A stretch of 64,000 nucleotides of DNA from an uncultured archaeon (lineage in GTDB: Archaea > Iainarchaeota > Iainarchaeia > Iainarchaeales > GCA-2688035), in the NCBI GenBank assembly GCA_964354805.1, contig CAYHBD010000042.1:18038-82037 (forward strand), read 5' to 3'. A model generated the notes under the pieces. It was given only the letters and a program-made list of their open reading frames with translations. It was not told where the DNA came from and ran no database searches. Below, in pieces: positions 1,431-37,296 of this stretch (its first letter is position 1; each line of letters begins with the position of its first letter). A program made the translations under genes and the position numbers.

Positions 1431-4400
1431 TATGTTATGAAGTTGTCGTCGAAAGAGAAGCGCTCTGCCCTCAGCCAGTTGCCGTCCCTTGCAATGCTTT
1501 GGATTCTTACCTCGTCAAGGTAGCCGTCAAAGTGGTCATCATTGAGAGTGTCCTTGCTGCCAATGCCCATGTTCCAGGTGTTTGAAACATTGCCGTCAGC
1601 GCCCGCGCTTGGGCCAACAACCCTGGTGCCATCTAGGTAAAGCGACTCGGTTGTATTTGCGGCATCCCTTACTCCAGCTATGTCGTGCCATAGGCTGTCA
1701 GGGACCTTTGTGTAATTGAGGTGATAGTCTATTCCATCCGGCCTTATGTTTAGATGGATGCTGTTGTTTGTTGCCTCATCCCCCCATTCTAGCTTCCACC
1801 AGTTGTTTGTGCCAGTGCAGCCTTTTCGCACTAGGTCTGAATCAGTCAGGGTTCTTCCTGTCTCTGCATTTGCCCTCACAGATAATGTGAAGCCGCCTAG
1901 TTCAAGGTTCAGGCTGTCGTTGTGTGGAACGCCAACATGGTCTCCATCCTGGTTTGTTATTGAAACAAAGAAAGGATAGTGGCCAAGGCCGTTTGCATCA
2001 GTGTTGTTTCTTGAGGTAATCCTCACTACGTTTGAATCGTTGTTGTTTGCTGTTGAATCAAAGTAGTTGCCGTCCAGCTCTGCAAAGTGGTAAACCGCCC
2101 TGTAGTTGCCGTCCCAAACCAGGGCATTGTTGTTGCCGTCTGTTGTACAGGGGTTTCCGTAGTCCATGTAAATGTAGTCTGTATTGGATGATTTGTCTAC
2201 TTTTGGAACCCTGACCCAGATCACGCTGTCCCCTGCCGTGTTCCAGTCATCTATTTCATAGTAAAGGGAGCTTCCGTCAGAATCGAAGAAGCGCAGGTCT
2301 CCGCCATTGCTTCTCCCAACCTTGCTGTAGTCAATCCTTGTTGGATCTAGTTTGACCATTACTGGGAAGTCGAACAGGTCACCGGTTTGGTAAATGTTTT
2401 TGAAATAAAGCTTCATCCTGTAGGGCCATGAGCCGGCGCACCAGATGTTAAAGTCTTTTTCCCCTGCATTGAAGTCAATATTATATCTGTCATTGACTGT
2501 TGTGAGAATATAGTAATTGCCTGCTTGCACTGAGGAAATGTTCCAGTTGTATTTGCAGTATCTTGCTGTGCTTAAATCATTGCTGTCGCAGTTTAAGGTA
2601 GCGAGATTCACGTCATTGATTATTGCAGTTCCGGTCCCTTGTGTTTGCGAGGAAGAATAATTCAGGTCAATGTTTAAATCAAATGAATTGTTGTCCAGAT
2701 CCCTTACATAAACATTGACGTCAATTGTTGGTGTAATATCCCTGTTGAAATTCTCGTCATTTTCAGGGTAAACAACATTGGCGTCAGGGCTTTGGTTTGA
2801 GGTTGTTATGGTGAAAGTGGCTTCTCCTGCATTGAAATCGCGGTTAGAGCCGTCGTTTACTTCTGAAAGAATATAGTAGTTGCCGTTTGGCACATTTGAA
2901 ATAGTCCATCGGTATTTGCAGTACTGCACTGTTTTAAGGTTGTTGCTGTCGCAGTTCCAGGTTGCAAGGTTTGAATCATCGACAATTACTGTTCCAGTGC
3001 CCTGGGTTTGGCTGGTTGAGTAATTGAGGTCAACTGTCATTGTAAAGGTGTTTGTATCATTGTCCTGGACAGTGATGTTGACATCAACCGTTGAAAGCAC
3101 ATCCCTGCTGAATGTTTCGCCTTTCTCAGGGTAAGCAACATTTGCGTCCGGCGTGGGTGTTGCAGCTGCAGCATTGCCAAAAGCAAAGTATAAAATCTCC
3201 CTGGCATTGCCGTCAACAGTTGTGTTGTTTACGGTAAATCCTGTTGAATCATTGGAAACGAAATCCATGTCCGCACCAAAAATTGGAGGACCTTCAACTA
3301 AAAATCTCAGGACTCTTGTCCTGTTTAAATCGGAATCAGCTACAGAAGTAGCTTTATTATCCAAATCGCCTGACCAGATGCTTCCTCTTTCAGAGGCACT
3401 TACTCCAACACCGAACGAAATTCTGCTCACTGATGAAACAGCGGCTGAGGTAGCGTTGCCCGCACTTTGGAATATTACCCCAGATGGCGTGAAACCAGTG
3501 GTTACAGATTGGTTGCCTGTTGAGGTTGCTTCATTAAAGCTGCCAGTATCATACTGCCCCCCTTTCAGGGCAATGTAATTTATGTAAACTGCGGTGCCGG
3601 GAGTTCCTGAAAAAGTAAGAGTGAATCCATTGGAATCCATTGACTTGATGACTGCTGTCCTTACTGCTACGCCTGTTCCACTTAAAGTGTTTTGGCATGA
3701 ATTAGTCCTTTGGTAACCATAGGTATTCGATACTCCAGTAGTTTGACTTTGTCTCATTGTGACGCGGCTATTTTGTTTTGTTGTTCCAACCACAAAACCT
3801 ATATTAAATGCATTATTGTTTACACTACCGGCTGCCGTAGGAGTAGTGGTAACTGTATTGTCAAAAATTATTAAAGCATCTGGCGTAAATCCCACACTTA
3901 CGGCTGTGTCAGCTACACCAGTTGGGGATAGAAAGCTTCCGACACTGGCATTCGTTAAATCGTCACCGCCCAATGCTATGTAATTGATTATTCTCTGCGA
4001 GGCATCGCAGGTTGTCCAGTTTATGGTAAAACCATCGGCATTCATTGACACAAAGTCTGCTTCGGCATTCACGAGGGAAGCAGCCCCAGTTCCCAGCGTG
4101 CTGACGCTTATTTGCGTTATGCATAAAGCGTTGCTCCACCTTTTTTTGCACGCAGCAATAACGTTATCTTTCGAAGCAGATGCTATCACAGCCCTCCGGG
4201 TAGAAGATGTAGCAGCCCCAAAAAACTCTTGCGCATTAACATCAGTGCCATCGGCGGTTTTATAATTGCCAAAGAAAATCACGAGTTTGGGTTGGAATCC
4301 AACACCGGTTATGGCCTGGTTTCCTGTTGTGGCATTGGGCTTGGCAAAGCTCCCGTATTTAACCAGCATTCCTGCTTGATTGTAAGCGTATTTTACGTCC

Positions 4401-5846: not shown

Positions 5847-6227
5847 CTACCTTGTTGCTGCGGCAATTTTCGCACCCCCTGTCATAGTTTGTTGGTTGGG
5901 CTTTTGTTTTGCAGAGCAAAACTCTTTTTTCCCAAGGCTTTTGCACTGTAGTGCAAAAGGCTTTTGTTTTGCAAACGGCAATTCTTTTGCTTCCAGCGCT
6001 ACAGGCGCAGTGCTGCTTTGCTCTATTCTGATGCATTTGCCCCTTGGGATAATTGTAGGCCTGCTGTTGCTGTTTTCAATTACCATCAGGTTGAATGAGT
6101 CGAAATCGAAGAATTTGCCTTCTTTGAATGAAACTGTGTTGGCTGTGTCGTTGTAGAAAACGCTTATCTCTTTTCCAAGTATTTCAAACAGCAGCTTGTC
6201 CTCCTTTTTGCCGTTCATTGCCCGCAT
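5847..6227 (-). CDS. Sm/LSm-like small protein, paralog 2, with an aberrant C-terminal tail
   Basis: The core MNGKKEDKLLFEILGKEISVFYNDTANTVSFKEGKFFDFDSFNLMVIENSNSRPTIIPRGKCIRIE is collinear with the upstream 74-aa paralog. The pattern resembles Sm1/Sm2 (G.l..fD..mNl.l.......ir...I..I). The track start at 6353 overlaps the upstream gene; ATG 6227 or 6218 fit the paralog's N-terminus. The ~55 aa tail crosses a palindromic element. Confidence 0.5.
   Translation of the reverse strand: MRAMNGKKEDKLLFEILGKEISVFYNDTANTVSFKEGKFFDFDSFNLMVIENSNSRPTIIPRGKCIRIEQSSTAPVALEAKELPFAKQKPFALQCKSLGKKEFCSAKQKPNQQTMTGGAKIAAATR
5925..5963 (-). repeat. palindromic element family A, copy 1
   Basis: Minus-strand reading: AAGCCTTTTGCACTACAGTGCAAAAGCCTTGGGAAAAAA. 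It lies in the 3' tail of ORF 5847..6353 and just upstream of the giant gene's start. Confidence 0.8.
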
Positions 6228-6941: not shown

Positions 6942-7847
6942 TCAGCGTAAGTATTCCAGCGTGTTGCTCCAGATGCCCGGGGTCATTGACGGGTCGTAGT
7001 TGAAGTAAACGACTTTTCCAATAAGCAGCCTCTTTTCAACTATTGCCGGGTAATAGGATGCTGTTGCAATGTTTTTGATGTATGCAATTATGTTTCCTGT
7101 TGGCTTTACGTCAAAGGTGATTATTGTCAGCGGCCCGTAAGCAGGGTCTGCCGGCGCTACTTCAATGCCCTCCATTATTTTGCTGTCATAGTCAACCCTG
7201 TGGACTTTTCCTGTTAAAACAATCGGCTGGACGCAGGTTGCCCTGTCGTTCGTGCCAATGTCGCAGTCTACAGGAATAATGTCTCTGAATGTTGCGCCCC
7301 ATCCGATTACGTCTGATGCAACGCCTGTTCCGTAAATTCCGCCGCTCCTGTAAATGCCTGAATCCATTACAACAACCAGCTTTCCGCCTGTTTTAACGTA
7401 ATTTTCAATCGCTTCTCCAAGTGTCCTTGAAACGCTTTTCTGGTAAGGGTTTGCGCCCAAATGCTGGTCAAGCAGAATGACATCGTATTGGGCAAGCTGT
7501 TCCCTTGGTGCAAACTCTAGGCCTGCCGGCTCTTTTATCTGGTAATAAACAAGGTCTCTCTGCGTGTCCAAATCAGACATTAAATGAATGCTCGGCTCTC
7601 CGATTACAAGCATTTTAATCGGGCCCCTGTCCCCCAAAAATGGAATCTGCCATAGGCCGAACCTGTGGCCCAAAAAAGCGGCAATGATAATAATCAAAAT
7701 CAGCGGGATTAATCCCTCGAGGTTTCTTGAAACAATAGAGCGCCTGCCTGATTGAGCAGGCATTGCTTCAGCACCGCCTTCTTCAGGATACATTCTTTCA
7801 ATCACCTTGTCAATTTTTTCCAAAATTGCTTTTAATCTTTTTCCCAA
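6942..7847 (-). CDS. membrane-anchored protein with a Rossmann-like (GATase1/ThuA-like) external domain; start uncertain
   Basis: TM segment LIPLILIIIIAAFLG, then KMLVIGEPS..YDVILLDQ..IENYVKTGGKLVVVMDSG. It has the same architecture as the neighbour 8037..9041. The track start is a TTG inside a palindromic element; the first ATG is at 7793. Confidence 0.55.
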   Translation of the reverse strand: MGKRLKAILEKIDKVIERMYPEEGGAEAMPAQSGRRSIVSRNLEGLIPLILIIIIAAFLGHRFGLWQIPFLGDRGPIKMLVIGEPSIHLMSDLDTQRDLVYYQIKEPAGLEFAPREQLAQYDVILLDQHLGANPYQKSVSRTLGEAIENYVKTGGKLVVVMDSGIYRSGGIYGTGVASDVIGWGATFRDIIPVDCDIGTNDRATCVQPIVLTGKVHRVDYDSKIMEGIEVAPADPAYGPLTIITFDVKPTGNIIAYIKNIATASYYPAIVEKRLLIGKVVYFNYDPSMTPGIWSNTLEYLR

Positions 7848-7875
7848 GGCTTTTTTGCGGAAGCAAAAAAGGCTT
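7838..7875 (-). repeat. palindromic element family A, copy 2
   Basis: Minus-strand reading: AAGCCTTTTTTGCTTCCGCAAAAAAGCCTTGGGAAAAA. It is identical to the ileS and tRNA-Pro(UGG) copies except for the loop. Confidence 0.85.
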
Positions 7876-8036
7876 AATTAATTTATTCAAATTAATCTGT
7901 TAATACTATTAATATTTGTTGCTTTTTCTCTTTTTAACACTTTCCTTTCGGGGAAAAAACTGCTATGCAATCTAAAACGCTTTTGTTATTTAAAAACCTT
8001 TCCTATTCTCTCCAAGCATCAGGGCAGGCTGTTTTT

Positions 8037-10461: not shown

Positions 10462-13383
10462 TCATTTCTTTAACTCAATTGAAAAGCTTCTTTCAATCAG
10501 CTTTTCTTTCACTTCTTTCTCAACAATCTGCATTGCGGTGTTTGTCTCTTTTTCAATCCATTTTCTGTTGCCCTGCAAAAAGCTTTTGTCATCGCAGGCA
10601 ACCAGCAGTAGTGCTTTTTGCTGGGGTAGCAGGTTTGCCTGCTTTCTCATCTCCTGAATCCTTCTCCTGAGTTCCTGCAGCTCCCACTCATTCCGCAGCT
10701 GCCCATCGGCATCCAAAAGCAAAAACAGCTTTGCGCCTGCAGCATCAGCCCTTGCATAATTTCCGCTTGGCTCTGCTGTTGCTTCAACAACGCGCTTTAC
10801 ATTGCAGCTGCTTGCAATAACACTGTGCACTTTGCTGAACTGCTTTCCTTTGCCAGAGGCAGACTTTTTCCCAAGGCTTTTTTGCTTTGGCAAAAAAGGC
10901 TTTTTTTCTGTTACAATGACAAGTTCCCTCAAAGGCCAGCGCAGCCGCAGTTTCTGCTGCTCTCTCAAAGAAAGAACAGCCTGGGTTAATTCTTTTGCGG
11001 AATCAAACTGCTTTTCCAGTTCAGGGTCAACCAGTTTTTTTTCAACGGCAGGCAGCTGCCTCAAGTGAATTGACAAGGGCATTTTTCCATTTCGCAAATG
11101 CTGGTAAATGTATTCGGTTATGTGCGGGGTGATTGGGGAAAGCAGCAAAAGCAGGCCGTCAATTACAGCCGACATTGTCTTGTTCACTGCCTGCGCTGTT
11201 TTTCCTTCTGTCCTGCCCCTGATTAATTTAATGTATGTCCTGCTCAAATCCTCTAAAACGAATTGCTCTATTGCTGCAGTTGCCCTGAAAAAATTATAGC
11301 TGTTATAAGCATCTGTTGCTGTTTCAATTAATGAATTCAGTTTGCTCAGAATCCACTTGTCTTCAACCTGCAAGCTAAGGGTGCTGATTTTTTTGCCCTT
11401 TGCAATGTCCAGCTTCAGATACATGTTCGCGTAGTTGAAGCAGTTCCAGAAGATTGAAAAGAAGCGGTGGATGTCCTTGAAGCTGTCCCAGTCAAAGGCA
11501 AAGTCCTCGCCCTTGCTTGTTGCAGTTAGATAATAGCGCAGGTAATCCCTGCTGTGTTTTTCAATTACCTCTTTCGGCTGGACTGCATTGCCCTTGCTTT
11601 TGCTCATTTTCCTTTTCTCAATGTCAAGCACAAGGCCGTGGACTGAAATTGTTTTGAAGGGCGCTTTGTCAAAAGCAATTGTTGAAAGGATTAACTCACT
11701 GTTCCACCATCCCCTAAACTGGTCTGTTCCCTCAAGATTGAGGTCGGCTGGCCAGAAGCGCTTGAACAATGCGCTGCTTGCAGGGAAACCGAGTGCTGCC
11801 CAGCTGCTGACTCCGGAATCAAACCAAACATCCAGAACCTCAGATACTCTGCGCATTTTTGCGCCGCAGCTGCATTTTATTTCCACTGAATCAATTTCCG
11901 GCTTGTGCAATTCCTTTACTTTCTTTCCGCTCAATTTTTGCAGTTCTTTTAAGCTGCCAATTACTTTCTGCTCTTTGCATTTGCCGCACTGCCAGATTGG
12001 AATTGGAGTTCCCCAATAACGGGCCCTTGAAATTGGCCAGTCTCCAATGCTTTCGAGCCAGTTCTGCATCCTGCTCTGCATCCAATCCGGAACCCACTGC
12101 ACTTTGCCGTTCAATTCAATCATTCTTTTCTGAATGCTGCTTATTTTGAAAAACCATTGCGGAACTGAAAGCATGAGCAAAGGATTTTTGCATCTCCAGC
12201 ACAATGGGTAATCGTGCGTGTAAGGGTGCCTGTAAACCAATGCATTTGCTTGCTCCAAATCGGCGATTATTTCCTTGTCCACTTCCCTGCATCTTTTGCC
12301 TGAATACTTTCCTGCTTCAGCTGTCATCAAGCCATTCAATTGCACTGGCGAAATTGCCGGCAGGCCTGCCTTGCTGCCTGCATCAAAGTCCTCTTTTCCA
12401 TGCCCTGGCGCGCTGTGAACCAGGCCTGTTCCTTCTTCAAGATTAACGTACCGCTCGCTTAGAATTACTCTGTAAGCGTTTTTCAGCGGAGGCAATTGCA
12501 GGTGCTTTGCAAGCGGGTTCTCGTACTGCATTCCCTGCAATTCTTTTCCCTTAACTGTTTTTTCAATTGTAAAGCCTGCCTCAATCGCTGCCATCAATTC
12601 CTGCACTTTTTCCTTTGCAATCACCCATGTTTCGCCATTGCTCATTTTTGCAAAAGAGTAATCAAATGCAGGGTGGACCATCACCCCGGTGTTTCCAGGC
12701 AGTGTCCAGGGAGTTGTTGTCCAGACAACGAGGAAAGTGTTCTCTTCTCCTTTCACTTTGAATTTCACAAAAACAGCTTCATCTGTCAGTTTGCTGTACT
12801 CGATTTCATTGAATGCAACTGCTGTTTCGCATCTCGGGCAGACATGCACAGGGTAAAGCCCTTTGTACAGCAGGCCTTTTTCTTCCGCTTTTTTGAAAGT
12901 CCACCAGATTGCCTCAATGTATTCATTGCTCAAAGTGAGATATGGATTCTGCCAGCCCATCCAAACGCCCAAGTCATTGAATTCGTTGTTCATTACATCA
13001 ATGAACTGCGTTGCATACTGCTTGCATTCTTTAATGAATTTCCCCACTCCGTATTGTTCGATGTCCTGCTTTGATTTGAAGCCCAGCTTTTCCTCAACCT
13101 TGTTTTCAATCGGCAATCCATGGCAGTCATAGCCAGGCCTGTCGAAAACATTGCAGCCCTGCATTCTCCTGCTTCTGATTGCAACATCCTTTTGGATCTT
13201 GTTCAAAGCAGTCCCCATGTGGATGTGGCCTGTTGCATAAGGCGGGCCGTCCATGAAATAAAAAGCCTTTTTCTGCTTGCCACTCTGTTTCCTAACCAAG
13301 GCAGGCACTTTCCTTTTTAGCCAGAAGCGTGTTATTTCCTCTTCCTTCTGCCTGCTGTATGGCTCAAGTAATTTTTCGGGCAT
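10462..13383 (-). CDS. ileS: isoleucyl-tRNA synthetase
   Basis: 973 aa. PYATGHIHMGTALNK is the HIGH-type motif and KMSKSKGN the KMSKS motif. An editing-domain-sized insertion and a Zn-finger-like CPRC..C are present. Confidence 0.9.
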   Translation of the reverse strand: MPEKLLEPYSRQKEEEITRFWLKRKVPALVRKQSGKQKKAFYFMDGPPYATGHIHMGTALNKIQKDVAIRSRRMQGCNVFDRPGYDCHGLPIENKVEEKLGFKSKQDIEQYGVGKFIKECKQYATQFIDVMNNEFNDLGVWMGWQNPYLTLSNEYIEAIWWTFKKAEEKGLLYKGLYPVHVCPRCETAVAFNEIEYSKLTDEAVFVKFKVKGEENTFLVVWTTTPWTLPGNTGVMVHPAFDYSFAKMSNGETWVIAKEKVQELMAAIEAGFTIEKTVKGKELQGMQYENPLAKHLQLPPLKNAYRVILSERYVNLEEGTGLVHSAPGHGKEDFDAGSKAGLPAISPVQLNGLMTAEAGKYSGKRCREVDKEIIADLEQANALVYRHPYTHDYPLCWRCKNPLLMLSVPQWFFKISSIQKRMIELNGKVQWVPDWMQSRMQNWLESIGDWPISRARYWGTPIPIWQCGKCKEQKVIGSLKELQKLSGKKVKELHKPEIDSVEIKCSCGAKMRRVSEVLDVWFDSGVSSWAALGFPASSALFKRFWPADLNLEGTDQFRGWWNSELILSTIAFDKAPFKTISVHGLVLDIEKRKMSKSKGNAVQPKEVIEKHSRDYLRYYLTATSKGEDFAFDWDSFKDIHRFFSIFWNCFNYANMYLKLDIAKGKKISTLSLQVEDKWILSKLNSLIETATDAYNSYNFFRATAAIEQFVLEDLSRTYIKLIRGRTEGKTAQAVNKTMSAVIDGLLLLLSPITPHITEYIYQHLRNGKMPLSIHLRQLPAVEKKLVDPELEKQFDSAKELTQAVLSLREQQKLRLRWPLRELVIVTEKKPFLPKQKSLGKKSASGKGKQFSKVHSVIASSCNVKRVVEATAEPSGNYARADAAGAKLFLLLDADGQLRNEWELQELRRRIQEMRKQANLLPQQKALLLVACDDKSFLQGNRKWIEKETNTAMQIVEKEVKEKLIERSFSIELKK
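10865..10902 (-). repeat. palindromic element family A, copy 3 (inside the ileS reading frame)
   Basis: Minus-strand reading: AAGCCTTTTTTGCCAAAGCAAAAAAGCCTTGGGAAAAA. It is translated in frame as KKPFLPKQKSLGKK. Confidence 0.85.
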
Positions 13384-14220: not shown

Positions 14221-14339
14221 TGGGCCCGGAGAGACTCGAACTCTCGACCCTTGGTGCGCTAACAGGGCAACAAGATGCCGAAATGAATTCACTCATCACC
14301 CTGCTATAAGACCAATGCTCTGCCGCTAAGCTACGGGCC
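14221..14339 (-). tRNA. tRNA-Ile (anticodon UAU as read) with a 48-nt intron after position 37
   Basis: Hand fold: GGGCCCG-TA-GCTT-AGCGGCA-GAGC-A-TTGGT-CTTATA[intron 14256..14303]C-ACCAA-GGGTC-GAGAG-TTCGAGT-CTCTC-CGGGCCC-A. All four stems pair. Confidence 0.8.
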
Positions 14340-14340
14340 C

Positions 14341-30499: not shown

Positions 30500-31567
30500 A
30501 TGCCTGCGAATGTCACTATTGAATTCGAGAAAGCAAGGCTGAGCTATCAGGCTGCCACTTCCCCAGAAGCAAAACTTGAGGCCCTGCTTGCAATGCAGAG
30601 CGGTGCGCCAGCGCACAAGGGCGGCGAGAACCTGAGGAGGGACATCAGCAAAAAAATTTCTTTGCTGCGAAAAGAGATTGAGAAAAAAAAGAAGCAGGAA
30701 AAGAAGAAGGGCAGCGCTCCGAGCATTGCCGTGAAAAAAGAGGGCATTGGGCAGATTGTTCTGGTTGGCTTGCCGAATAGCGGCAAAAGCTGGCTGCTGA
30801 ACAAGCTGACCGGCGTTGATGTTGAGATTGCGCCATATCCTTTTACCACAAAAAAGCCTGTTGTAGGCATGATGGATTTTCAAGGTTCAAAGGTGCAGCT
30901 GGTTGAAGTTCCTGCATTGGTCAAGGGAAGCAGCAAGGGCAAGGCAAACGGCTTGCGGCTGCTTTCAATTGTGAGGAATGCAGACGCTGTTGTATTGCTC
31001 GCGAGAAGCAGGAGGGAAGAGCAAGTGCTCTTGCATGAGCTTGGCAATGTGAAGATTTTTTTGAACGAGAAAAAGCCGGCTATTGAAGTGCAGCTGTCGA
31101 AATTCAAGGGCATTGCAGTAGTGCACAAGCAAAACCTGAAAATAAAAGAGGTAGTGCTGCATGATTTTTTGCACGCAAGGGGAATGTTCAATGTGAGTGT
31201 TGTTTTGAACCAGCCTTTGCGCGATTTGCTGACTGTTGAAAGAGTGCTCGATGAAACAATCTCCTACAAGCCGAGCATTACCGTGGATGCTTTCGGTGAA
31301 ATAAATTTTGAAGAGCTGCACCAAAATATTTTCGGTCTGTTAAAAAAAATTTTGGTTTTCACGAAAAAGGCCGGGCAGCCGCCTGACATGAATGCGCCTC
31401 TTGCGCTGCATGCCGGCGCAACCGTTGCAGATGCTGCAAAAATGCTGCACAAGGACTTCGCTAATTTCAAGTTTGTCAGGGTCTGGGGCAGCAGCAAATT
31501 CCCAGGGCAAAGGGTCGAGCACAACTTTGAACTGCGCAACGGGGACATTATTGAAATTTGCGTTTGA
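30500..31567 (+). CDS. DRG/Rbg-type OBG-like GTPase with a TGS domain
   Basis: G1 is VGLPNSGKSWLL, then PYPFTTKKPVVG and VEVPAL. The C-terminal part is a TGS-like domain (..VWGSSKFPGQRV..L.NGDIIEI). Confidence 0.85.
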   Translation: MPANVTIEFEKARLSYQAATSPEAKLEALLAMQSGAPAHKGGENLRRDISKKISLLRKEIEKKKKQEKKKGSAPSIAVKKEGIGQIVLVGLPNSGKSWLLNKLTGVDVEIAPYPFTTKKPVVGMMDFQGSKVQLVEVPALVKGSSKGKANGLRLLSIVRNADAVVLLARSRREEQVLLHELGNVKIFLNEKKPAIEVQLSKFKGIAVVHKQNLKIKEVVLHDFLHARGMFNVSVVLNQPLRDLLTVERVLDETISYKPSITVDAFGEINFEELHQNIFGLLKKILVFTKKAGQPPDMNAPLALHAGATVADAAKMLHKDFANFKFVRVWGSSKFPGQRVEHNFELRNGDIIEICV

Positions 31568-31706
31568 ACAAGGCTGGCAGTAATGAGTTCCTGTTTGAAA
31601 AAAAGTGCTTTCTAAGGCTACGGCAGTGCAATTTAATGCCCCAAAGCCATAAAGAAACTAATATATACCCCATCGGATTTAATAGTTTCAAAAAAATGGG
31701 TTTGAA

Positions 31707-32168
31707 ATGAGTAGGTTAATTGTAGGCGTTACGTGTTTCATTGCTTTGGCTGTTTTTCTTAGCGGCTGCATTGACGGCAAGCAGATTCTATTCAAGGAAA
31801 TTCCGGGCGCCATTGTTCCATCACCTTGCGAGTCATTCGCCAGAGAGCATATATGTGCCTTGTTCAAGTGCATGGTTGACAGCTGCTGGTGCGATGAAGG
31901 CAGCATTCCAAGCCCGATTTTGGAGGAGCCCAGTGCTGTTGGCAGTTTTATTGGGGCAGGCACAGCCGCCATTAAAAGCGATCAGGACGCGATAGCAGCC
32001 GTCCAGCGGTATGTGCAAAGAACTGGTTCAGAGTACAGTGATGTCAGGAGGGCAGTGAAGCTGAATAATGTTTTCTGGAACGTGTTTGCATTCAATTCGG
32101 AAAACGATGAAACGGTTTTCACTGTTGCGGCAGACGGCACAATTCTGAAAACTGTTTGCGGTGTCTGA
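31707..32168 (+). CDS. lipoprotein with a PepSY-like C-terminal domain
   Basis: The signal plus lipobox-like sequence is ALAVFLSGC. The C-terminus DAIAAVQRYV..VFWNVFAF..VFTVAADGTILK follows the PepSY pattern. Confidence 0.5.
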   Translation: MSRLIVGVTCFIALAVFLSGCIDGKQILFKEIPGAIVPSPCESFAREHICALFKCMVDSCWCDEGSIPSPILEEPSAVGSFIGAGTAAIKSDQDAIAAVQRYVQRTGSEYSDVRRAVKLNNVFWNVFAFNSENDETVFTVAADGTILKTVCGV

Positions 32169-32249
32169 ATCCAACCAGCATAAAAAACCCGGCGCAGTTC
32201 TGCAAACCAAATAGAATAATTTAAATATTACAACGCGGTTGTAATTATT

Positions 32250-32924
32250 ATGAAATTGAAGATTTTGATTGCTCTTCTTGTTTTATGCACGCTGGTTCTC
32301 GGCGGCTGCCTGCAAAGCGAACAGGCAGGCGGTACAGGCGAGCCTGCTGGTGCTGCTGGTGAAGAGGCAAATGGCGCAAACGAGCCGGCTGGCGGTGCAG
32401 GCGAACAAACAGATGGCACTGCCGAAACACTTGGCGTTGGCGAGTGGGCTGTGGAAATAAAAAGCGCAATAACTTTGACACCTGAACACAAAATAACAGA
32501 AACGGTATACGAGGACCTTAAGTCCGTTGATGATGTCAGGTTTGAAATTACCAGTAATTGCGGGAAAACATCAGACAAGCTTTTCAAGTTCGAGCCTGAA
32601 CACAAAATAGTCATGAAAGTAGTGGATGCACAGGGGGAAAAGACAAAGTTTTATACTCATGCGTATAAGGAGGCTTCCAACAGGGAATTCGTTGACGAAA
32701 TGGAAGTAAAGATAAGGCTGTATCACCAAGACGTGCCAAGCTTTGCCTGGATGGATATCGGAGAGGACGGCTTCATAAGGGAGTCATACGAAGCTTACCC
32801 TTCAACTAACTCTTTTTACAATCCTGCAATAGCAGCAAATGCATCAGGCCTAAAGCTGAGGCTGGAAATTGTTGATACTGAAACAGGCCAGACACTCGCC
32901 TTCGGCGAGTACACTTTGGCATAG
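32250..32924 (+). CDS. lipoprotein, hypothetical
   Basis: MKLKILIALLVLCTLVLGGC is followed by a low-complexity G/A/E linker and then a beta-rich domain. Confidence 0.55.
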   Translation: MKLKILIALLVLCTLVLGGCLQSEQAGGTGEPAGAAGEEANGANEPAGGAGEQTDGTAETLGVGEWAVEIKSAITLTPEHKITETVYEDLKSVDDVRFEITSNCGKTSDKLFKFEPEHKIVMKVVDAQGEKTKFYTHAYKEASNREFVDEMEVKIRLYHQDVPSFAWMDIGEDGFIRESYEAYPSTNSFYNPAIAANASGLKLRLEIVDTETGQTLAFGEYTLA

Positions 32925-32990
32925 GGCAATCCCGAGAATTGAAGCCCGCCAGCCAAAAGCATTAAGCAATAATCTCTATACATTACAGTA

Positions 32991-33007
32991 GGCGATGATG
33001 AGGTTAA
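32991..33007 (+). repeat. truncated copy of the 5' end of the C/D sRNA (C box plus start of guide)
   Basis: ggcgATGATGAggttaa is identical to 34496..34512. I see no downstream C'/D boxes. Confidence 0.6.
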
Positions 33008-33056
33008 TCTCTTACTGGAGCAAGGCTTTAATATATGTGCAATTAATTGTTTTATT

Positions 33057-34355
33057 ATGAAAAGTGAAAAACTTATCTTATTTTCAGTTTGTATTGCAGT
33101 CTTTCTTATTTGTGGGTGCGTGAACCCGCCAAACAATGAGGTTTTGACTCCACCAGGCAAGGCCGTTTCTGTTTCTGATTTTGCAAAATGCCTTACTGAA
33201 AAAGGCGTGACGGTTTATGGTTTCGGCACTAGCTGGTGCACGTTTTGCACTGAACAGGAAAAAATGTTTGGCAATGCATGGAAAGACCTGAATTATATTG
33301 AGTGTTCAATATCCGAAAACTTTAATGAACAGAGCGAATTGTGCAACAAAGCGGGAATAAGGGGTTATCCTACTTGGGTGTTAAAGGGCGGCGAAAAAAT
33401 CGAAGGAACGTTTTCTTTTGACGTATTAAGCCAGCGAACCGGCTGCCCAGCGCCCACAATACCAAGTCAGCCTAACACAACAGACTTGAATAACGAAGTT
33501 CCTGTCGTAAATAACCAGCAATTAAAATTTGACGTAGTACAACCATTACCAGCGGGAACAGTAGGCGAGCAATACAATTATTCATTCTGCAAGCCAGACT
33601 TGACTTCAGCAAGCGACCTTTGCGCAGGAAGCGAAATAACAAATCCTTCGGGAGGAAACCCGCCATATCATTTTGTTCTGGATTCTGGAGCGTTTGCCCC
33701 AATGGGCCTTTCTTTAAACTTGAACGGGCTTTTGAGTGGAAAGCCCACAACCGAGGGAGAAAGCACTTTTAGTGTCTGTGCTGTTGACCAATCAGGCACG
33801 CAAACATGCAAGCAAGTCACATTAGGCATTAGTCAAGCTGTTGCAAAACCAGAAACTTGGACAGGCAAAATGACAGGCACTTATACAAGAGAATCTCTGC
33901 TTGGCGGCGGCGAGTACGGTTATGATTTTAGCGTGAGTTTTACTGTCCCAAAAAGCATAATTGCTAACTTCAAGGACCCGGCGAATACTGACGACTGGAT
34001 TGATATTAAAAAAACAAGCGGAACTATTGCTGAGACGACTACTGTCTTACAGCAGTTGGATACAACAAATAATCCCGGTGACTTAATGGTTGGAGGTTCA
34101 CTTAACGAACCAATTCAAGTAGGAGTTGCAGGAAGCGTTTACCAGGCAAACGGAATATTTTTTGTTTCACCGACTGGCAAAGAGCTTATTGCGGGTTATT
34201 TGCAAAGAGATGGCGCACCGTTTTCCGATAGTCGCTGGAGCGATATAAAGCTAACTGTTACTAATTACACTGACACAACCATTACAGGCACGTGGGGCAC
34301 AGGTTTGTTTGGGGAACTGGTAGCACACGGAACCTTCACTCTCAACAAGCAATAA
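33057..34355 (+). CDS. lipoprotein with a VKOR-associated-type thioredoxin-like domain and a putative Ig (He_PIG-like) domain
   Basis: Lipobox-like VFLICGC. Then VTVYGFGTSWCTFCTEQEKMFG..IECS..CNKAGIRGYPTW (CxxC Trx fold), and GGNPPYHFVLDSG..GLSLNLNGLLSGKPT. Confidence 0.6.
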   Translation: MKSEKLILFSVCIAVFLICGCVNPPNNEVLTPPGKAVSVSDFAKCLTEKGVTVYGFGTSWCTFCTEQEKMFGNAWKDLNYIECSISENFNEQSELCNKAGIRGYPTWVLKGGEKIEGTFSFDVLSQRTGCPAPTIPSQPNTTDLNNEVPVVNNQQLKFDVVQPLPAGTVGEQYNYSFCKPDLTSASDLCAGSEITNPSGGNPPYHFVLDSGAFAPMGLSLNLNGLLSGKPTTEGESTFSVCAVDQSGTQTCKQVTLGISQAVAKPETWTGKMTGTYTRESLLGGGEYGYDFSVSFTVPKSIIANFKDPANTDDWIDIKKTSGTIAETTTVLQQLDTTNNPGDLMVGGSLNEPIQVGVAGSVYQANGIFFVSPTGKELIAGYLQRDGAPFSDSRWSDIKLTVTNYTDTTITGTWGTGLFGELVAHGTFTLNKQ

Positions 34356-34495
34356 TAGGAAAATGCAAAAACTTCCAATACAAATGATGGTTAATAAAAG
34401 GATAAAAAGCGCCAATTGAAATCATCCTCAGACTCATCAAAAGCCAGAAAAAGTAAGGCATAAGAAAATAAATTGTAACACCTATAAGCTAAATT

Positions 34496-34557
34496 GGCGA
34501 TGATGAGGTTAACACCATCCGAGCGCAAGCTGTGAGGAGACAACTCAACACTGAGCC
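34496..34557 (+). ncRNA. C/D box sRNA
   Basis: GGCG-ATGATGA(C)-ggttaacaccat(12 nt)-CCGA(D')-GCGCAAGC-TGTGAGGA(C')-gacaactcaaca(12 nt)-CTGA(D)-GCC. The spacing is canonical for archaeal sRNAs, and GGC/GCC forms the terminal stem. Confidence 0.65.
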
Positions 34558-34604
34558 ACATTCGATTTCATTCCAAGATTTTTAGGCAGCCGTCTTTTAA
34601 TCGG

Positions 34605-35228
34605 TTATTCGATTATAATCACTTCACCGTCTCTCAGAGTTTTAAACGGAATCTTATTTTTATTGCAATATTCAACTTCTTTGTCAATGTCTGCGGACTC
34701 AGGATGGTTAGATTTATAGTGCGGGAGAATAATGTAATCAAGGACTCCAAGGCCTTCCCAAATTGTTTTCTGAAGCTCTTGGTAAGGCCTGTCATTGGGG
34801 TCGTCAACAATTTGCAGTGCCTTGAAATCAGGAGCCAACACGCATATGCCGGCACTATATCCTGCATACACAAAATCGTTTCTTTTAAGAAGCTCTTTAA
34901 AAATTACGTCAAAACCACTCAATTTCATTGCCTGTCGCAGAATAAATGTATTTCCTCCTCGGACGAATATGCCTCCAAATTCATTCAATTTTTTCCGCAA
35001 TTCATCAGTCTTTCCAAAAAAATTCTTTAAATCAAGGTATTCTACGGTTAAGCCCAACCCTTCCAAACTTTCAATATCCAGTTTTTCCCACCTGTTTTTC
35101 TTGACCCAATCAACATTAGAATAATCACAGGCGTTTGGAATGTAAGCAATTTTTTTGTTGTTGGGCATTAGCCCGGCTAACTCGCCAGCCTTATTCCCCA
35201 GCCTAAAAGAGGACAAATAAAACTTCAT
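34605..35228 (-). CDS. pepE: peptidase E / S51 family dipeptidase
   Basis: GGIFVRGGNTFILRQAM..VYAGYSAGICVLAP..ILPHY match the S51 Ser-His motifs. Confidence 0.8.
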   Translation of the reverse strand: MKFYLSSFRLGNKAGELAGLMPNNKKIAYIPNACDYSNVDWVKKNRWEKLDIESLEGLGLTVEYLDLKNFFGKTDELRKKLNEFGGIFVRGGNTFILRQAMKLSGFDVIFKELLKRNDFVYAGYSAGICVLAPDFKALQIVDDPNDRPYQELQKTIWEGLGVLDYIILPHYKSNHPESADIDKEVEYCNKNKIPFKTLRDGEVIIIE

Positions 35229-35277
35229 ATAAAAACCAGTTCATCGAGGTTATTAAAACCTATAAGTATTCTTAGTT

Positions 35278-35335
35278 TTAATAGGGTTAACACCGTCTGA
35301 CCGAAAGGTGTGAAGATTTAACTCAACACTGAGCC
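35278..35335 (+). ncRNA. degenerate second copy of the C/D sRNA (C box lost)
   Basis: ttaatag-ggttaacaccgt-CTGA-CCGAAAGG-TGTGAAGA-tttaactcaaca-CTGA-GCC. The D', C' and D boxes and both guides are conserved, but the C box is TTAATAG. Confidence 0.45.
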
Positions 35336-35371
35336 GCTTTTAAGTTAGAACTATATGTGAGTGCAATAATA

Positions 35372-35854
35372 TCAGCGATTGCCACCCAAATCAAGCAGGC
35401 GCTGCAATTGCCAATTGCGTTCCCTGGTTACTTTGGCTGCAGCATCAGAGGGGCTGGCGGCTCTATAAATAGCTTGCAAGGCATAATTTGCAGCACCGAT
35501 AGAATGAGCGGGAACATGCGCAGTTGCCGCCGCTTGGCCTGCGGCCCTGGCAGCAGAGCAAGCGGCATTATCTTCCCCTACTTCACGAGCGGCAGCATGA
35601 GCATCAAGTGAAGTTTTGCGCACGTCCGGCATCTTGAATATTCCGGTGCGCATCCATTTTCGGAGGGCTTCAATGGCTTTTCTGGGCCTGTGGTCTTCCG
35701 GGTATTTTTCCTCAAAATAGGGAAGAACACGCTCGACACAATCAACCGCCCAGCGTGCCAATGTTTTATGGTCGGTTTTTCCCACAAGCGCTGCAATTGC
35801 CTCGTCTTTGTGCGTAACTGAGAATTTGGATTTTTCCTTCATATTCTCAACCAT
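35372..35854 (-). CDS. helical protein of the putative-immunity (Imm5-like) type; hypothetical
   Basis: LARWAVDCVERVLPYFEEKYPEDHRPRKAIEALRKWMRTG..DAHAAAREVG..AARAAGQAAATAH. It looks visibly more GC-rich than its neighbours. Confidence 0.45.
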   Translation of the reverse strand: MVENMKEKSKFSVTHKDEAIAALVGKTDHKTLARWAVDCVERVLPYFEEKYPEDHRPRKAIEALRKWMRTGIFKMPDVRKTSLDAHAAAREVGEDNAACSAARAAGQAAATAHVPAHSIGAANYALQAIYRAASPSDAAAKVTRERNWQLQRLLDLGGNR

Positions 35855-35913
35855 TTATAGGCAATTTTTAATGTGTTGTAGTGTTGTTGAGCCAAAAAAT
35901 AGTTTTGCGCCGG

Positions 35914-37296
35914 CTACTTTTCAAAATCGTAAATCTGCACTTCTTGTTCCTGCTCTTGCTTTGCTGCAATTAATTTGAACAACTTTTTCCTGTTCTTTAT
36001 TATGAATAAAACAATCAGAACAATAATCAGCAGGATGATTCCGGTGAAAAGCAAATCCGTGTCGAACTGCCCATCTTCTTCCAGGCCTCCTTCGTAAACG
36101 CGCAAAGCGTCCTCTTTTGCAGTACCTGCGTATCGTTCCGCATCGTCAAAGCTGCCGTTGCCGTAGAATGTTTCTGCCTTTGCCCAGTTGCTCTGCATTT
36201 CTGTTACGCTGCCCTGCTTTATCCATTTGAAAACATAGTCATCCTGCAGGATGAAGTCAACCAGATTGCTCAAGGTCTGCTGGCCTGTTTTTTTCATCAA
36301 TTCATCGCTTTGGCCGTACAGCACCTGAAATGCGCTGTTTCTTTTCTCCCTTGTTGTGAGGTCATCAGTTAAGCCCGTTATGAATGAGGGGGAATCAACT
36401 TTTGAAAAAATCTGGTTTATTCTTTCTTTAAGTCTTGTGGAAAGAGACGCTATTGAACTGAAGTTCTGAAAATTTTGTGAAATATTAGCCAAGGTGTTGA
36501 GGCTTCGTATGGTTTCTATGGAAAGCGTTGTCTCACCAATTCCCTGTCTCAAACAGTCCAAAGAAACAATGTTTGAACATGTATCGGAAGAGCTTTTTTT
36601 TTCACCTTCTAAGTAAATAGAACGCTTTGAATCAATGGATTCTATTAAATCAAAAACAGTTTGGAATTTCCTTTCAAAATCTTTGAGTTTGTTTGTGTCA
36701 GGATTGGCAACAAAATTTTCTTTAGAATACGTGGCATCAAGAACCGCAGCGCTTATGTCTTCTGCCAAAGGAAACATTTCATCCAGCTGATTTTTTAAGG
36801 CATCAGTTTTATTTTGCAACTCTGGAAAGCCTTCTAGGTTTGATTTGACCGTCACCAAATCAATCCTTTCATTTTTCAAATCTTGTGCCAAGTCAGAAAA
36901 ATACTTTGCTGTATCCGCATTGAAAAGCCAATAACTTTTTTGAGTGGAGTCTCCAACGCTTTTTTCCAATTGAAGATAATAGCGCAGGACATAAGCTGTT
37001 TTAATCAGCTCCCTTCTTGCAACAAGAGATTCAGGCAATTGCATTGGCTCTGCATCAGAAACAGGAATAAAGCCAGCAAGGCTGCTATCGGTGCTTAAAA
37101 CAGTTACAACAAAAAAGTATTTCCCAGAATTCCTTATTTTCACATCAGGGTAAACTCCGGCTGTTTCGTTTTCAGTCAGAAAGTTGTTCTGCTTGCTGAC
37201 AAAATCAATTGCCTCCTGGCTGCTTGCGGCAAAGGCAGCGCCCAAGAGCAATAAGAACACGCCGGCAATGACAGTGAATTCTATATATTTATTCAT
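35914..37296 (-). CDS. secreted protein with a C-terminal TM anchor, hypothetical
   Basis: The N-terminal signal is VIAGVFLLLLGAAFAASS and the C-terminal TM is LLFTGIILLIIVLIVLFII. Confidence 0.5.
   Translation of the reverse strand: MNKYIEFTVIAGVFLLLLGAAFAASSQEAIDFVSKQNNFLTENETAGVYPDVKIRNSGKYFFVVTVLSTDSSLAGFIPVSDAEPMQLPESLVARRELIKTAYVLRYYLQLEKSVGDSTQKSYWLFNADTAKYFSDLAQDLKNERIDLVTVKSNLEGFPELQNKTDALKNQLDEMFPLAEDISAAVLDATYSKENFVANPDTNKLKDFERKFQTVFDLIESIDSKRSIYLEGEKKSSSDTCSNIVSLDCLRQGIGETTLSIETIRSLNTLANISQNFQNFSSIASLSTRLKERINQIFSKVDSPSFITGLTDDLTTREKRNSAFQVLYGQSDELMKKTGQQTLSNLVDFILQDDYVFKWIKQGSVTEMQSNWAKAETFYGNGSFDDAERYAGTAKEDALRVYEGGLEEDGQFDTDLLFTGIILLIIVLIVLFIIKNRKKLFKLIAAKQEQEQEVQIYDFEK

Follow-up and report, generated by a model that had tools for sequence, protein, structure and literature searches.

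Introduction

Genes for transfer RNA (tRNA) and transfer-messenger RNA (tmRNA) are classic anchors of genomic islands. In islands found at tRNA genes (tDNA islands) of the SSV, pNOB8 and pTN3 types, a small and conserved stable-RNA gene is the recurrent point of insertion; the two ends of the island carry direct repeats, one being the intact gene and the other a partial copy that has been displaced, the empty site is found in close relatives, and successive insertions leave fragments behind. These features are also seen at the locus described here, a pepE-like gene bracketed by two copies of a C/D box small RNA (sRNA) gene in a 64-kb stretch of DNA (the window). The host belongs to Candidatus Diapherotrites (Iainarchaeota), a lineage of the DPANN archaea, as judged from the source names of homologues of neighbouring genes (e.g. 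P0132 and P0146-P0147). We suggest that the region at about 31.6-35.9 kb is probably an island of accessory genes which has grown at, and split, a conserved C/D sRNA gene, and that the repeats around pepE are the junctions of recombination events.

With pTN3 the locus further shares the displacement of the 5' part of the target and a restored gene with a new upstream region (PMC8371274; Islander), and pTN3-type integration itself uses the 5' half of a tRNA gene (PMC8371274). It differs from tDNA islands in that the target is a C/D guide RNA gene, no integrase was found in the genes scanned, the modules are single-gene units of 0.8-2.3 kb, and the crossover points vary. A review of archaeal tyrosine recombinases names tRNA genes, protein genes and intergenic sites as targets, and never sRNA genes (PMC8371274); in the literature searched we found no description of a methylation guide RNA gene as the anchor of an island. 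A flexible island anchored at a stable-RNA gene is a known arrangement, and a C/D box guide RNA in the part of the anchor would be new if the mechanism proposed below is correct.

The sRNA genes of Pyrobaculum offer a second comparison. Duplications, a nearby pseudogene, composite sRNAs and copies resembling miniature inverted-repeat transposable elements (MITEs) have been described there, with no mention of integration (PMC6009581, 2018). Duplicated genes, a pseudogene a few kb away and unstable, non-syntenic surroundings are common to both cases (PMC6009581), and composite sRNAs sharing one guide have their counterpart in the second sRNA of contig L004 (see below). In our case, by contrast, protein-coding genes lie as cargo between the copies, the resident gene has been cut in two, and a 'disarmed' copy travels with a protein gene; the host is moreover a mesophilic DPANN archaeon with one credible strict-consensus C/D candidate in 64 kb. 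Integron arrays, finally, resemble the locus in having mostly single-gene modules separated by a short repeated recombination sequence, with a content that varies between strains. This is a resemblance only, since no IntI, attI or attC-type hairpins were found here, the gene orientation is mixed, and the repeat is a functional RNA gene.

Results and Discussion

The repeats around pepE

Positions 34476-34562 and 35254-35340 form a direct repeat of 87 nucleotides (nt) with 63 ungapped matches (72% identity), slightly longer than the ~75 nt given in an earlier, sequence-only reading of this DNA from which the analysis started. Chance similarity is ruled out, since 40 first-order Markov resamplings of the 4-kb region (random sequences of matched dinucleotide frequency) gave scores of 43.6 +/- 1.0 (maximum 47) against the observed 63. 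All data are metagenomic contigs, and L-numbers denote the fetched contigs or loci that were compared with the window. One of these, the independently assembled 2-kb contig L001, has the same order of left copy, pepE and right copy at 99.8% identity, and the arrangement is therefore not an assembly artefact. Only three copies or fragments of the sRNA were found in the 64 kb with nhmmer, the third being the 17-nt 5' fragment at 32991-33007 that had been noticed before; it matches the start of the left copy at 17 of 17 positions.

The resident sRNA gene and its relatives

A DRG-type GTPase gene (+), a gene for a conserved membrane protein of 460 amino acids (aa) (-) and a SpoU gene (+) keep their order in ten relatives, and the 460-aa gene is always the first conserved gene beyond a variable interval that begins at the DRG gene. 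In the nearest relatives, L012 and L014, DRG is 89% identical and the 460-aa gene adjoins the interval; in L016-L022 one or two extra genes lie between the two flanks. L014 and L015 present the empty site, with the DRG gene, 208 nt that contain one canonical sRNA, and the 460-aa gene. The interval of L012 and L013 (2.3 kb in L012, with genes different from those of the window) holds a 5' fragment of the sRNA (GGCGATGATGAG) about 50 nt after the DRG stop codon, followed by a Zip gene, a Fic gene, a full sRNA and the 460-aa gene, and homology between L012 and L014 reaches the two flanks only. In the more distant L016-L022 the interval consists of a gene of ~290 aa, joined in L022 by one of 221 aa, with no sRNA; the sRNA is present elsewhere in L016 and L021, and the parts of L018, L020 and L022 that were fetched gave no match to it. 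The five genes of the window interval (encoding the 153-aa, 224-aa, thioredoxin-like lipoprotein, PepE-like and Imm5-like proteins) are all absent from the interval in L012-L022 by tblastn. The synteny comparison proposed in the sequence-only reading thus speaks for its view of pepE as an inserted cassette: the two nearest relatives lack the gene and have at this site either a single sRNA or other cargo.

Both ends of the native sRNA gene can be recognised in the window. Positions 32962-33007 align almost base for base with the upstream arm and the first 17 nt of the full L012 sRNA; in the nhmmer search this 5' remnant matches model positions 2-19, and homology ends after GGTTAA. On the other side, 35888-35925 (TGAGCCAAAAAATAG...) can be aligned with the end of the L012 sRNA, namely its D box and terminal stem, and with its 3' flank as far as the 460-aa stop codon. 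The orthology of both remnants to the ends of the L012 locus places the ends of the native gene 2.9 kb apart, and the resident gene is thus split, with both copies around pepE lying between its halves. The repeats do mark an insertion, as had been proposed, but they form part of a larger island (~31.6-35.9 kb), which split the resident sRNA gene (Table 1).

An extra 5' fragment after the DRG stop codon of the window (GGCAGTAATGAG, ~31577-31588), noted by eye, was too weak to claim. As a separate observation, L012 carries at ~4335-4360, between its sRNA and the real stop codon of the 460-aa homologue, a degenerate duplicate of the last codons of that gene, which may be another scar of recombination.

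Table 1. Features of the island and its flanks, with positions in the window
Feature	Positions	Strand	Basis
DRG-type GTPase gene, conserved left flank	30500..31567	+	Pfam MMR_HSR1 + TGS
Accessory island, five genes	31568..35913	.	between conserved flanks, lineage-specific
Upstream arm of resident (native) sRNA gene	32962..32990	+	89% identical to L012 arm
Resident sRNA 5' remnant: GGCG + C box ATGATGA + GGTTAA	32991..33007	+	orthologous to 5' end of full L012 sRNA
Cargo gene 1: secreted/lipoprotein-like, thioredoxin-like domain	33057..34355	+	weak Pfam Thioredoxin match
Upstream arm of intact sRNA, incl. ACACCTATAAG at 34478-34488	34466..34495	+	arm comparison
Intact C/D box sRNA (left copy)	34496..34557	+	boxes, terminal stem, family alignment
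Cargo gene 2: pepE-like, Peptidase_S51 / type-1 glutamine amidotransferase-like	34605..35228	-	Pfam PF03575, E 1.6e-21
pepE 5' flank = right-copy arm	35229..35284	-	homology to pepE upstream in L010/L023
Right-copy body: D' guide, D', loop hairpin, C', D guide, D box, GCC; no C box	35285..35335	+	98% identical to L014 sRNA
Cargo module 3: Imm5-like gene (35372-35854) + promoter	35342..35895	-	Pfam Imm5_like, E 8.9e-45
Resident sRNA 3' remnant (TGAGCC, 35888-35893) + native 3' flank	35888..35913	+	aligns with L012
460-aa membrane protein gene, conserved right flank	35914..37296	-	homologues 38-66% identical

The left copy and its sRNA family

The left copy had been read as an intact C/D sRNA, and all sequence features of an archaeal C/D box sRNA are indeed found in it. 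It consists of GGCG, the C box ATGATGA (34500-34506), the 12-nt D' guide GGTTAACACCAT (34507-34518), the D' box CCGA (34519-34522; CTGA in most relatives), a loop GCGCAAGC that forms a GNRA mini-hairpin (34523-34530), the C' box TGTGAGG (34531-34537), the 13-nt D guide AGACAACTCAACA (34538-34550), the D box CTGA (34551-34554) and GCC. Its terminal stem is GGC/GCC, the pairs of which are kept with covariation across the family alignment. Its upstream arm is 71% identical to that of the sRNA in L005 and unlike the native arm at 32962-32990, and no other family member exceeds 82% identity to its body. Rfam matches were sub-threshold C/D families only (best sR1, 23.8 bits against a gathering score of 45, E 0.0026); the Rfam C/D families are lineage-specific, and such scores are usual for lineage-specific sRNAs. 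Folding of the copies by minimum free energy was uninformative, as is expected for kink-turn (K-turn) RNAs.

The family has twelve full-length members in nine lineages. It was assembled by an exact-pattern scan with the two guide cores of public metagenome and viral collections, by nhmmer over the fetched loci and by synteny look-ups; the scan of the viral collections yielded no viral contig with the sRNA. Two further pattern matches, L006 and L011 (inside a phage tail gene), were discarded as chance after reading. The alignment shows no variation in the guide cores GTTAACACC and AACTCAAC or in the D box, unlike in the spacers, and the terminal stem and the D'-C' loop hairpin covary: 93% of the cells are paired against 72% in shuffles, a value reached in 0 of 500, with the hairpin taking the forms GC-GCAA-GC, CC-GAAA-GG, CC-TAAC-GG and AGC-GAAA-GCT. 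This combination argues for a real RNA gene under selection, and we propose that the left copy is a working methylation guide.

By pattern scan the left copy is the sole credible strict-consensus C/D sRNA candidate in the 64 kb. The sole other strict combination of C box and D box, ATGATGA...CTGA over 72 nt, lies at 1471-1542 (-). In L004 (minus strand) a composite sRNA is seen at ~1811-1880, 144 nt downstream of a copy without C box; it has the C box TTGATGT, a hairpin ATTCCG...CGGAAT that replaces D' and C', and the D guide and D box of the family.

The right copy as a chimera

As an sRNA, the right copy (35274-35335) retains both guide cores and the D', C' and D boxes and lacks the C box, in line with the sequence-only reading. 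At the place of the C box it reads TTAATAG/AATAGGG, with no GA in either register and hence without the terminal K-turn with box D. On the plus strand its arm comprises AAACCTATAAG (35256-35266) and, in place of the C box, TTTTAATAG (35276-35284); on the pepE strand the same segment holds a TATA-like sequence, GGTTTTAATAACC, 21 nt before the pepE ATG.

This arm is shared with pepE elsewhere. Positions 35234-35282 are 84% identical to the sequence upstream of pepE in L010 and similarly related to that in L023 (55 nt before the ATG); the pepE 5' flank of both loci also holds the reverse complement of AACCTATAA and a remnant TTTT(T)ATGAG, and the homology with the window stops where the sRNA body begins (35283-35285). 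When 45-nt arms and bodies were compared separately, the right-copy body proved to be 98% identical to the single sRNA of L014 and 82% identical to the left copy, which does not fit a simple duplication of the left copy followed by decay. Its arm, by comparison, has 31% identity to that of L014 and 60% to those of the C-box-less copies in L002 and L003. Homology of the arm to the pepE flank together with an L014-like body marks the right copy as a chimera of a pepE-module arm and a native-type body, the latter being probably the displaced 3' part of the native sRNA.

The same discordance extends to the other C-box-less copies. The four arms of this type (window, L002, L003 and L004) are 51-62% identical to one another and 29-53% to canonical arms, and the paired bodies are 98% identical within L002 and 96% within L003; arms group by type, and bodies by genome or lineage. 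Such a pattern reads as the signature of recombination within the sRNA. All four contigs have the same 5-nt replacement TTTTA and a similar arm (variants TTTTAATGAGG versus TTTTAATAGGG); TTTTA could go back to one 'disarmed' copy that spreads with cargo, or act as a TATA box or as a shifted C box. We regard the right copy as most likely a non-functional scar, and its D box has become CTGG in L001.

The same architecture in other lineages

L002 has a near-canonical and a C-box-less copy, identical at 57 of 58 positions, on either side of a DUF3800 gene and a 147-aa gene. The two copies of L003, C-box-less and canonical (90% over 63 nt), enclose a 404-aa gene, beyond which comes a Gp49/HigB-like pair, and L004 has a C-box-less copy followed by the composite sRNA with the same D guide. 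The sRNA of L005 comes after an AbiEi/AbiEii pair, and SoFic-type defence models pick up the Fic proteins of both L012 and L023. The genes that adjoin the family (AbiEi/AbiEii, SoFic-like Fic, Gp49/HigB-like pair) are typical of flexible genomes.

The combination of a restored target and a displaced direct-repeat fragment that characterises tDNA islands occurs twice in the window (32991 versus 34496, and 34496 versus 35285) and again in L012, L002 and L003. The breakpoints vary, and no fixed crossover core is seen: L012 breaks after sRNA nt 12 and the window after nt 17, and further junctions fall where the body begins, within the D box or at the 3' end. Taken with the chimeric right copy and the Imm5-like indel described below, the L002 and L003 pairs support the proposal of the sequence-only reading that the sRNA gene mediates recombination or is a target of integration.

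The Imm5-like gene as a strain-level indel

The Imm5-like gene had been called GC-rich and foreign-looking, and its GC content of 51.8% (z +2.1) is the highest among the 58 genes of the window. It is missing in L001, whose identity to the window is 99.8% as far as the right copy's 3' end and 99.3% again from the final codons of the 460-aa gene; between these points L001 has ~123 nt of hairpin repeats instead. The left breakpoint coincides with the 3' end of the right copy and the right one falls in the last codons of the 460-aa gene, and the Imm5-like gene is a strain-level indel bounded by the right copy. The right junction of L001 is L014-like and that of the window L012-like. Such a gene-sized swap, with one breakpoint in the last codons of the 460-aa gene and a right flank that is L012-like in the window and L014-like in L001, is what is known from the replacement of flexible islands by homologous recombination. 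It differs from that process in that the other breakpoint lies in a 50-nt RNA-gene copy inside the island and not in a core flanking gene.

The hairpin repeat, CTTTTTCCCAAGGCTTTTTTG-loop-CAAAAAAGGCTT, is intergenic in the window at 7837-7876, 10864-10902 and 44599-44637, with a weaker case at 5911-5942; three occurrences with at most one mismatch compare with 0.01 expected. It is also found in L001 (reverse complement, ~1270-1320), within the filler that replaces the Imm5-like gene, and could be terminator-like or similar to repetitive extragenic palindromic (REP) elements.

The pepE module

Homologues of pepE with 63-85% identity are found in many DPANN archaea and in a Peregrinibacteria bacterium, in unrelated contexts. 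The closest ones (L008 and L009) lie in a NifU operon with no sRNA, and a reference-genome search from pepE gave one distant Woesearchaeota locus only, also without sRNA. L010 and L023, in which pepE is 82-83% identical, have other contexts and share with each other only a block of 853 nt, made up of the arm, pepE, 108 nt and an sRNA of a second C/D family; the shared block ends exactly at the 3' end of that sRNA.

Members of this second family lie at 5726-5790 in L010 and at ~870-933 in L023, with the guides TCTGACGATGACA and ACAGATGGGCGAA, and their loop hairpin covaries (GC-GAAA-GC versus CC-GCAA-GG). A junction 10-mer, GAG|ATAAAAC, follows a truncated C box both at 2155-2165 of L012 and at ~4925-4940 of L010 (reverse complement), two unrelated loci; a module end common to both could account for it, as could chance. 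The PepE-like proteins are 70-85% identical across Woesearchaeota, Aenigmarchaeota, Nanoarchaeota, Diapherotrites and a candidate-phylum bacterium of the Peregrinibacteria, and this unusually high conservation across phyla suggests wide horizontal spread.

Proposed course of events

We infer the following order of events. The original resident gene would have comprised the arm 32962-32990, the C box and the body. DNA with the thioredoxin-like lipoprotein gene would then have recombined within the 5' core GGCGATGATGAGGTTAA, leaving the remnant at 32991-33007 and supplying a new upstream arm. A pepE module of ~0.8 kb, bringing its own 'disarmed' C-box-less sRNA beside the pepE promoter, would next have recombined near GGTTAACACC, to give on the left an intact hybrid of resident 5' end and incoming body (34496-34557) and on the right a C-box-less hybrid of pepE-module arm and resident body (35256-35335). 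In a model, a single crossover of a ~0.8-kb pepE circle near GGTTAACACC reproduces both observed hybrids exactly. The right copy's 3' end may finally have been the site at which the Imm5-like module was acquired or lost. The process would be homologous recombination of the RadA type, in part homology-facilitated illegitimate recombination, for which the guide and box sequences would supply the homology: ~50 nt that are portable and nearly invariant across lineages, plausibly kept so by an rRNA target.

The main rival, which we consider unlikely, is site-specific integration by a tyrosine or other recombinase encoded elsewhere, with the sRNA gene as attB, the C-box-less copy as attP, and the small modules as remnants or as elements mobilised in trans. 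The geometry of an intact gene with a displaced partial direct repeat is that of tDNA islands, the arm is conserved in four C-box-less copies, and 5' fragments are left behind as the full gene gains a new upstream region, which resembles integration of the pTN3 type (PMC8371274). However, no integrase-like domain was detected in the called genes of 12 protein-anchored loci (L008-L010, L012-L018, L020-L023) or in 10 further open reading frames (ORFs) of the window, the ORFs of which were scanned in part; nor was a recombinase domain found in selected ORFs of the pattern-matched loci L002-L005 or in the three island genes with a Pfam match (the 153-aa and 224-aa genes had no usable match and are uninformative). 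The modules are of just 0.8-2.3 kb, the breakpoints lack one fixed core, no viral contig carries the family, a phage collection gave no DNA match, and a plasmid collection gave distant bacterial pepE homologues only. The want of a recombinase in the genes scanned, the small modules, the varying breakpoints and the absence of a viral carrier lead us to favour homology-driven recombination.

Selection on the C-box-less form itself, either as a functional second RNA with a shifted, degenerate C box (AUGAGGU) or as a TATA box for the neighbouring genes, seems to us quite improbable. All four copies have intact guides and D', C' and D boxes and the same TTTTAA replacement, those of L002 (b), L003 (a) and L004 (a) keep a GAGG which could give the G.A pairs of a K-turn, and TTTTAAT is similar to the TATA-like boxes that lie ~21-22 nt ahead of the start codons of pepE and the Imm5-like gene. 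Against this, the window copy reads TAG, with no G.A pair in either register, and the window and L001 differ at only two positions in 1207 nt, one in the altered D box of L001 and the second five bases downstream, at the homology breakpoint. The near identity of the bodies to the neighbouring or orthologous canonical copy can moreover be accounted for by gene conversion or a recent crossover.

Very little speaks for local duplication and decay, in which the right copy would be no more than a paralogue of the left one in the course of decay, pepE would have arrived by another route and the sRNA would have taken no part in recombination. Duplicated sRNA genes of Pyrobaculum do include a pseudogene ~2.5 kb from its parent (PMC6009581), and the repeat takes in upstream sequence (AACCTATAAG), as a duplication at the DNA level would. 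Yet the right-copy body is closer to its L014 orthologue than to the left copy, its arm shares homology with sequence flanking pepE elsewhere, in other genomes, the 5' and 3' ends of the resident gene lie outside both copies, and the same architecture recurs with different cargo in L002 and L003. A transposon or MITE is rejected, as no terminal inverted repeats were seen bounding the sRNA copies; the MITE-like sRNA element of Pyrobaculum calidifontis has such repeats and many dispersed copies.

Several points weigh against the island having arisen by recombination at the sRNA gene. The polarity of insertion versus deletion depends on few relatives, in the nearest of which DRG is only 89% identical. 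A circular intermediate, a recombinase or an excision allele at the population level was not observed in these metagenomic contigs. The TTTTA replacement and arm shared by four contigs could mean a conserved functional paralogue and not scars, and the C-box-less copy of L003 lies on the side of the cargo opposite to that predicted by a single crossover. Homologous recombination on ~50 nt at 80% identity would, in addition, be inefficient. The composition of pepE (GC 38.6%, z -1.6; third-position GC, or GC3, 39.9%, z -1.3, among the 58 genes of the window) is low without being an outlier, and the AT-richness that had been taken as a sign of foreign origin is a weak one; the case for the insertion of pepE rests on synteny and not on composition.

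DPANN archaea have small genomes and exchange genes widely by means that are poorly understood. If the island did grow by recombination at its sRNA gene, it would provide a concrete and testable route of gene flow in these organisms and would help to explain the free change of genomic context by C/D sRNA genes; an intact sRNA accompanied by C-box-less or truncated copies would then serve as a signature of flexible islands in uncultured archaea. It is tempting to go further and to regard the sRNA gene as a portable recombination site in DPANN archaea, with single-gene cassettes (pepE, Imm5-like, thioredoxin-like lipoprotein, Fic, DUF3800 and others) that would each have a 'disarmed' copy and be inserted, exchanged and excised at the resident gene without a dedicated integrase. 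We put this forward tentatively, as something short of probable; it would amount to a new system of cassette exchange and to the first 'mobile feature' of archaeal C/D sRNA genes.

Guide targets

No rRNA was found in the window or in 11 loci scanned, nor were convincing sites complementary to the guides found within the window. With Escherichia coli rRNA as a proxy for that of the host, the prediction of targets for the two guides, suggested in the sequence-only reading, gave a candidate for one of them. The D guide pairs with 16S positions 1083-1093 with one G.U, and permuted guides paired as well with E. coli 16S in 10 of 2000 cases; no proxy target in E. coli rRNA was found for the D' guide. 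A target of the D guide in the helix-35 region of 16S rRNA is plausible: UUAACUCAACA is predicted to match UGUUGAGUUAA perfectly in this region and to direct 2'-O-methylation at the equivalent of E. coli G1087.

Other features of the window

The most atypical composition in the window belongs to the gene at 48123-48746 (+), with a GC content of 34% and a GC3 of 25% (z -4.1). It encodes a cysteine-rich protein of 207 aa with an N-terminal signal-like segment and a C-terminal membrane anchor, and is unrelated to pepE despite its equal length. Rfam reports an intron-containing tRNA of 120 nt at 14221-14340 (-), which ARAGORN missed, and ARAGORN alone reports a tRNA-Ile(GAT) at 46899-46987 (+), for which Rfam gave no report at the gathering score. 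A tRNA-like 3' end is present at ~44560-44590 (-).

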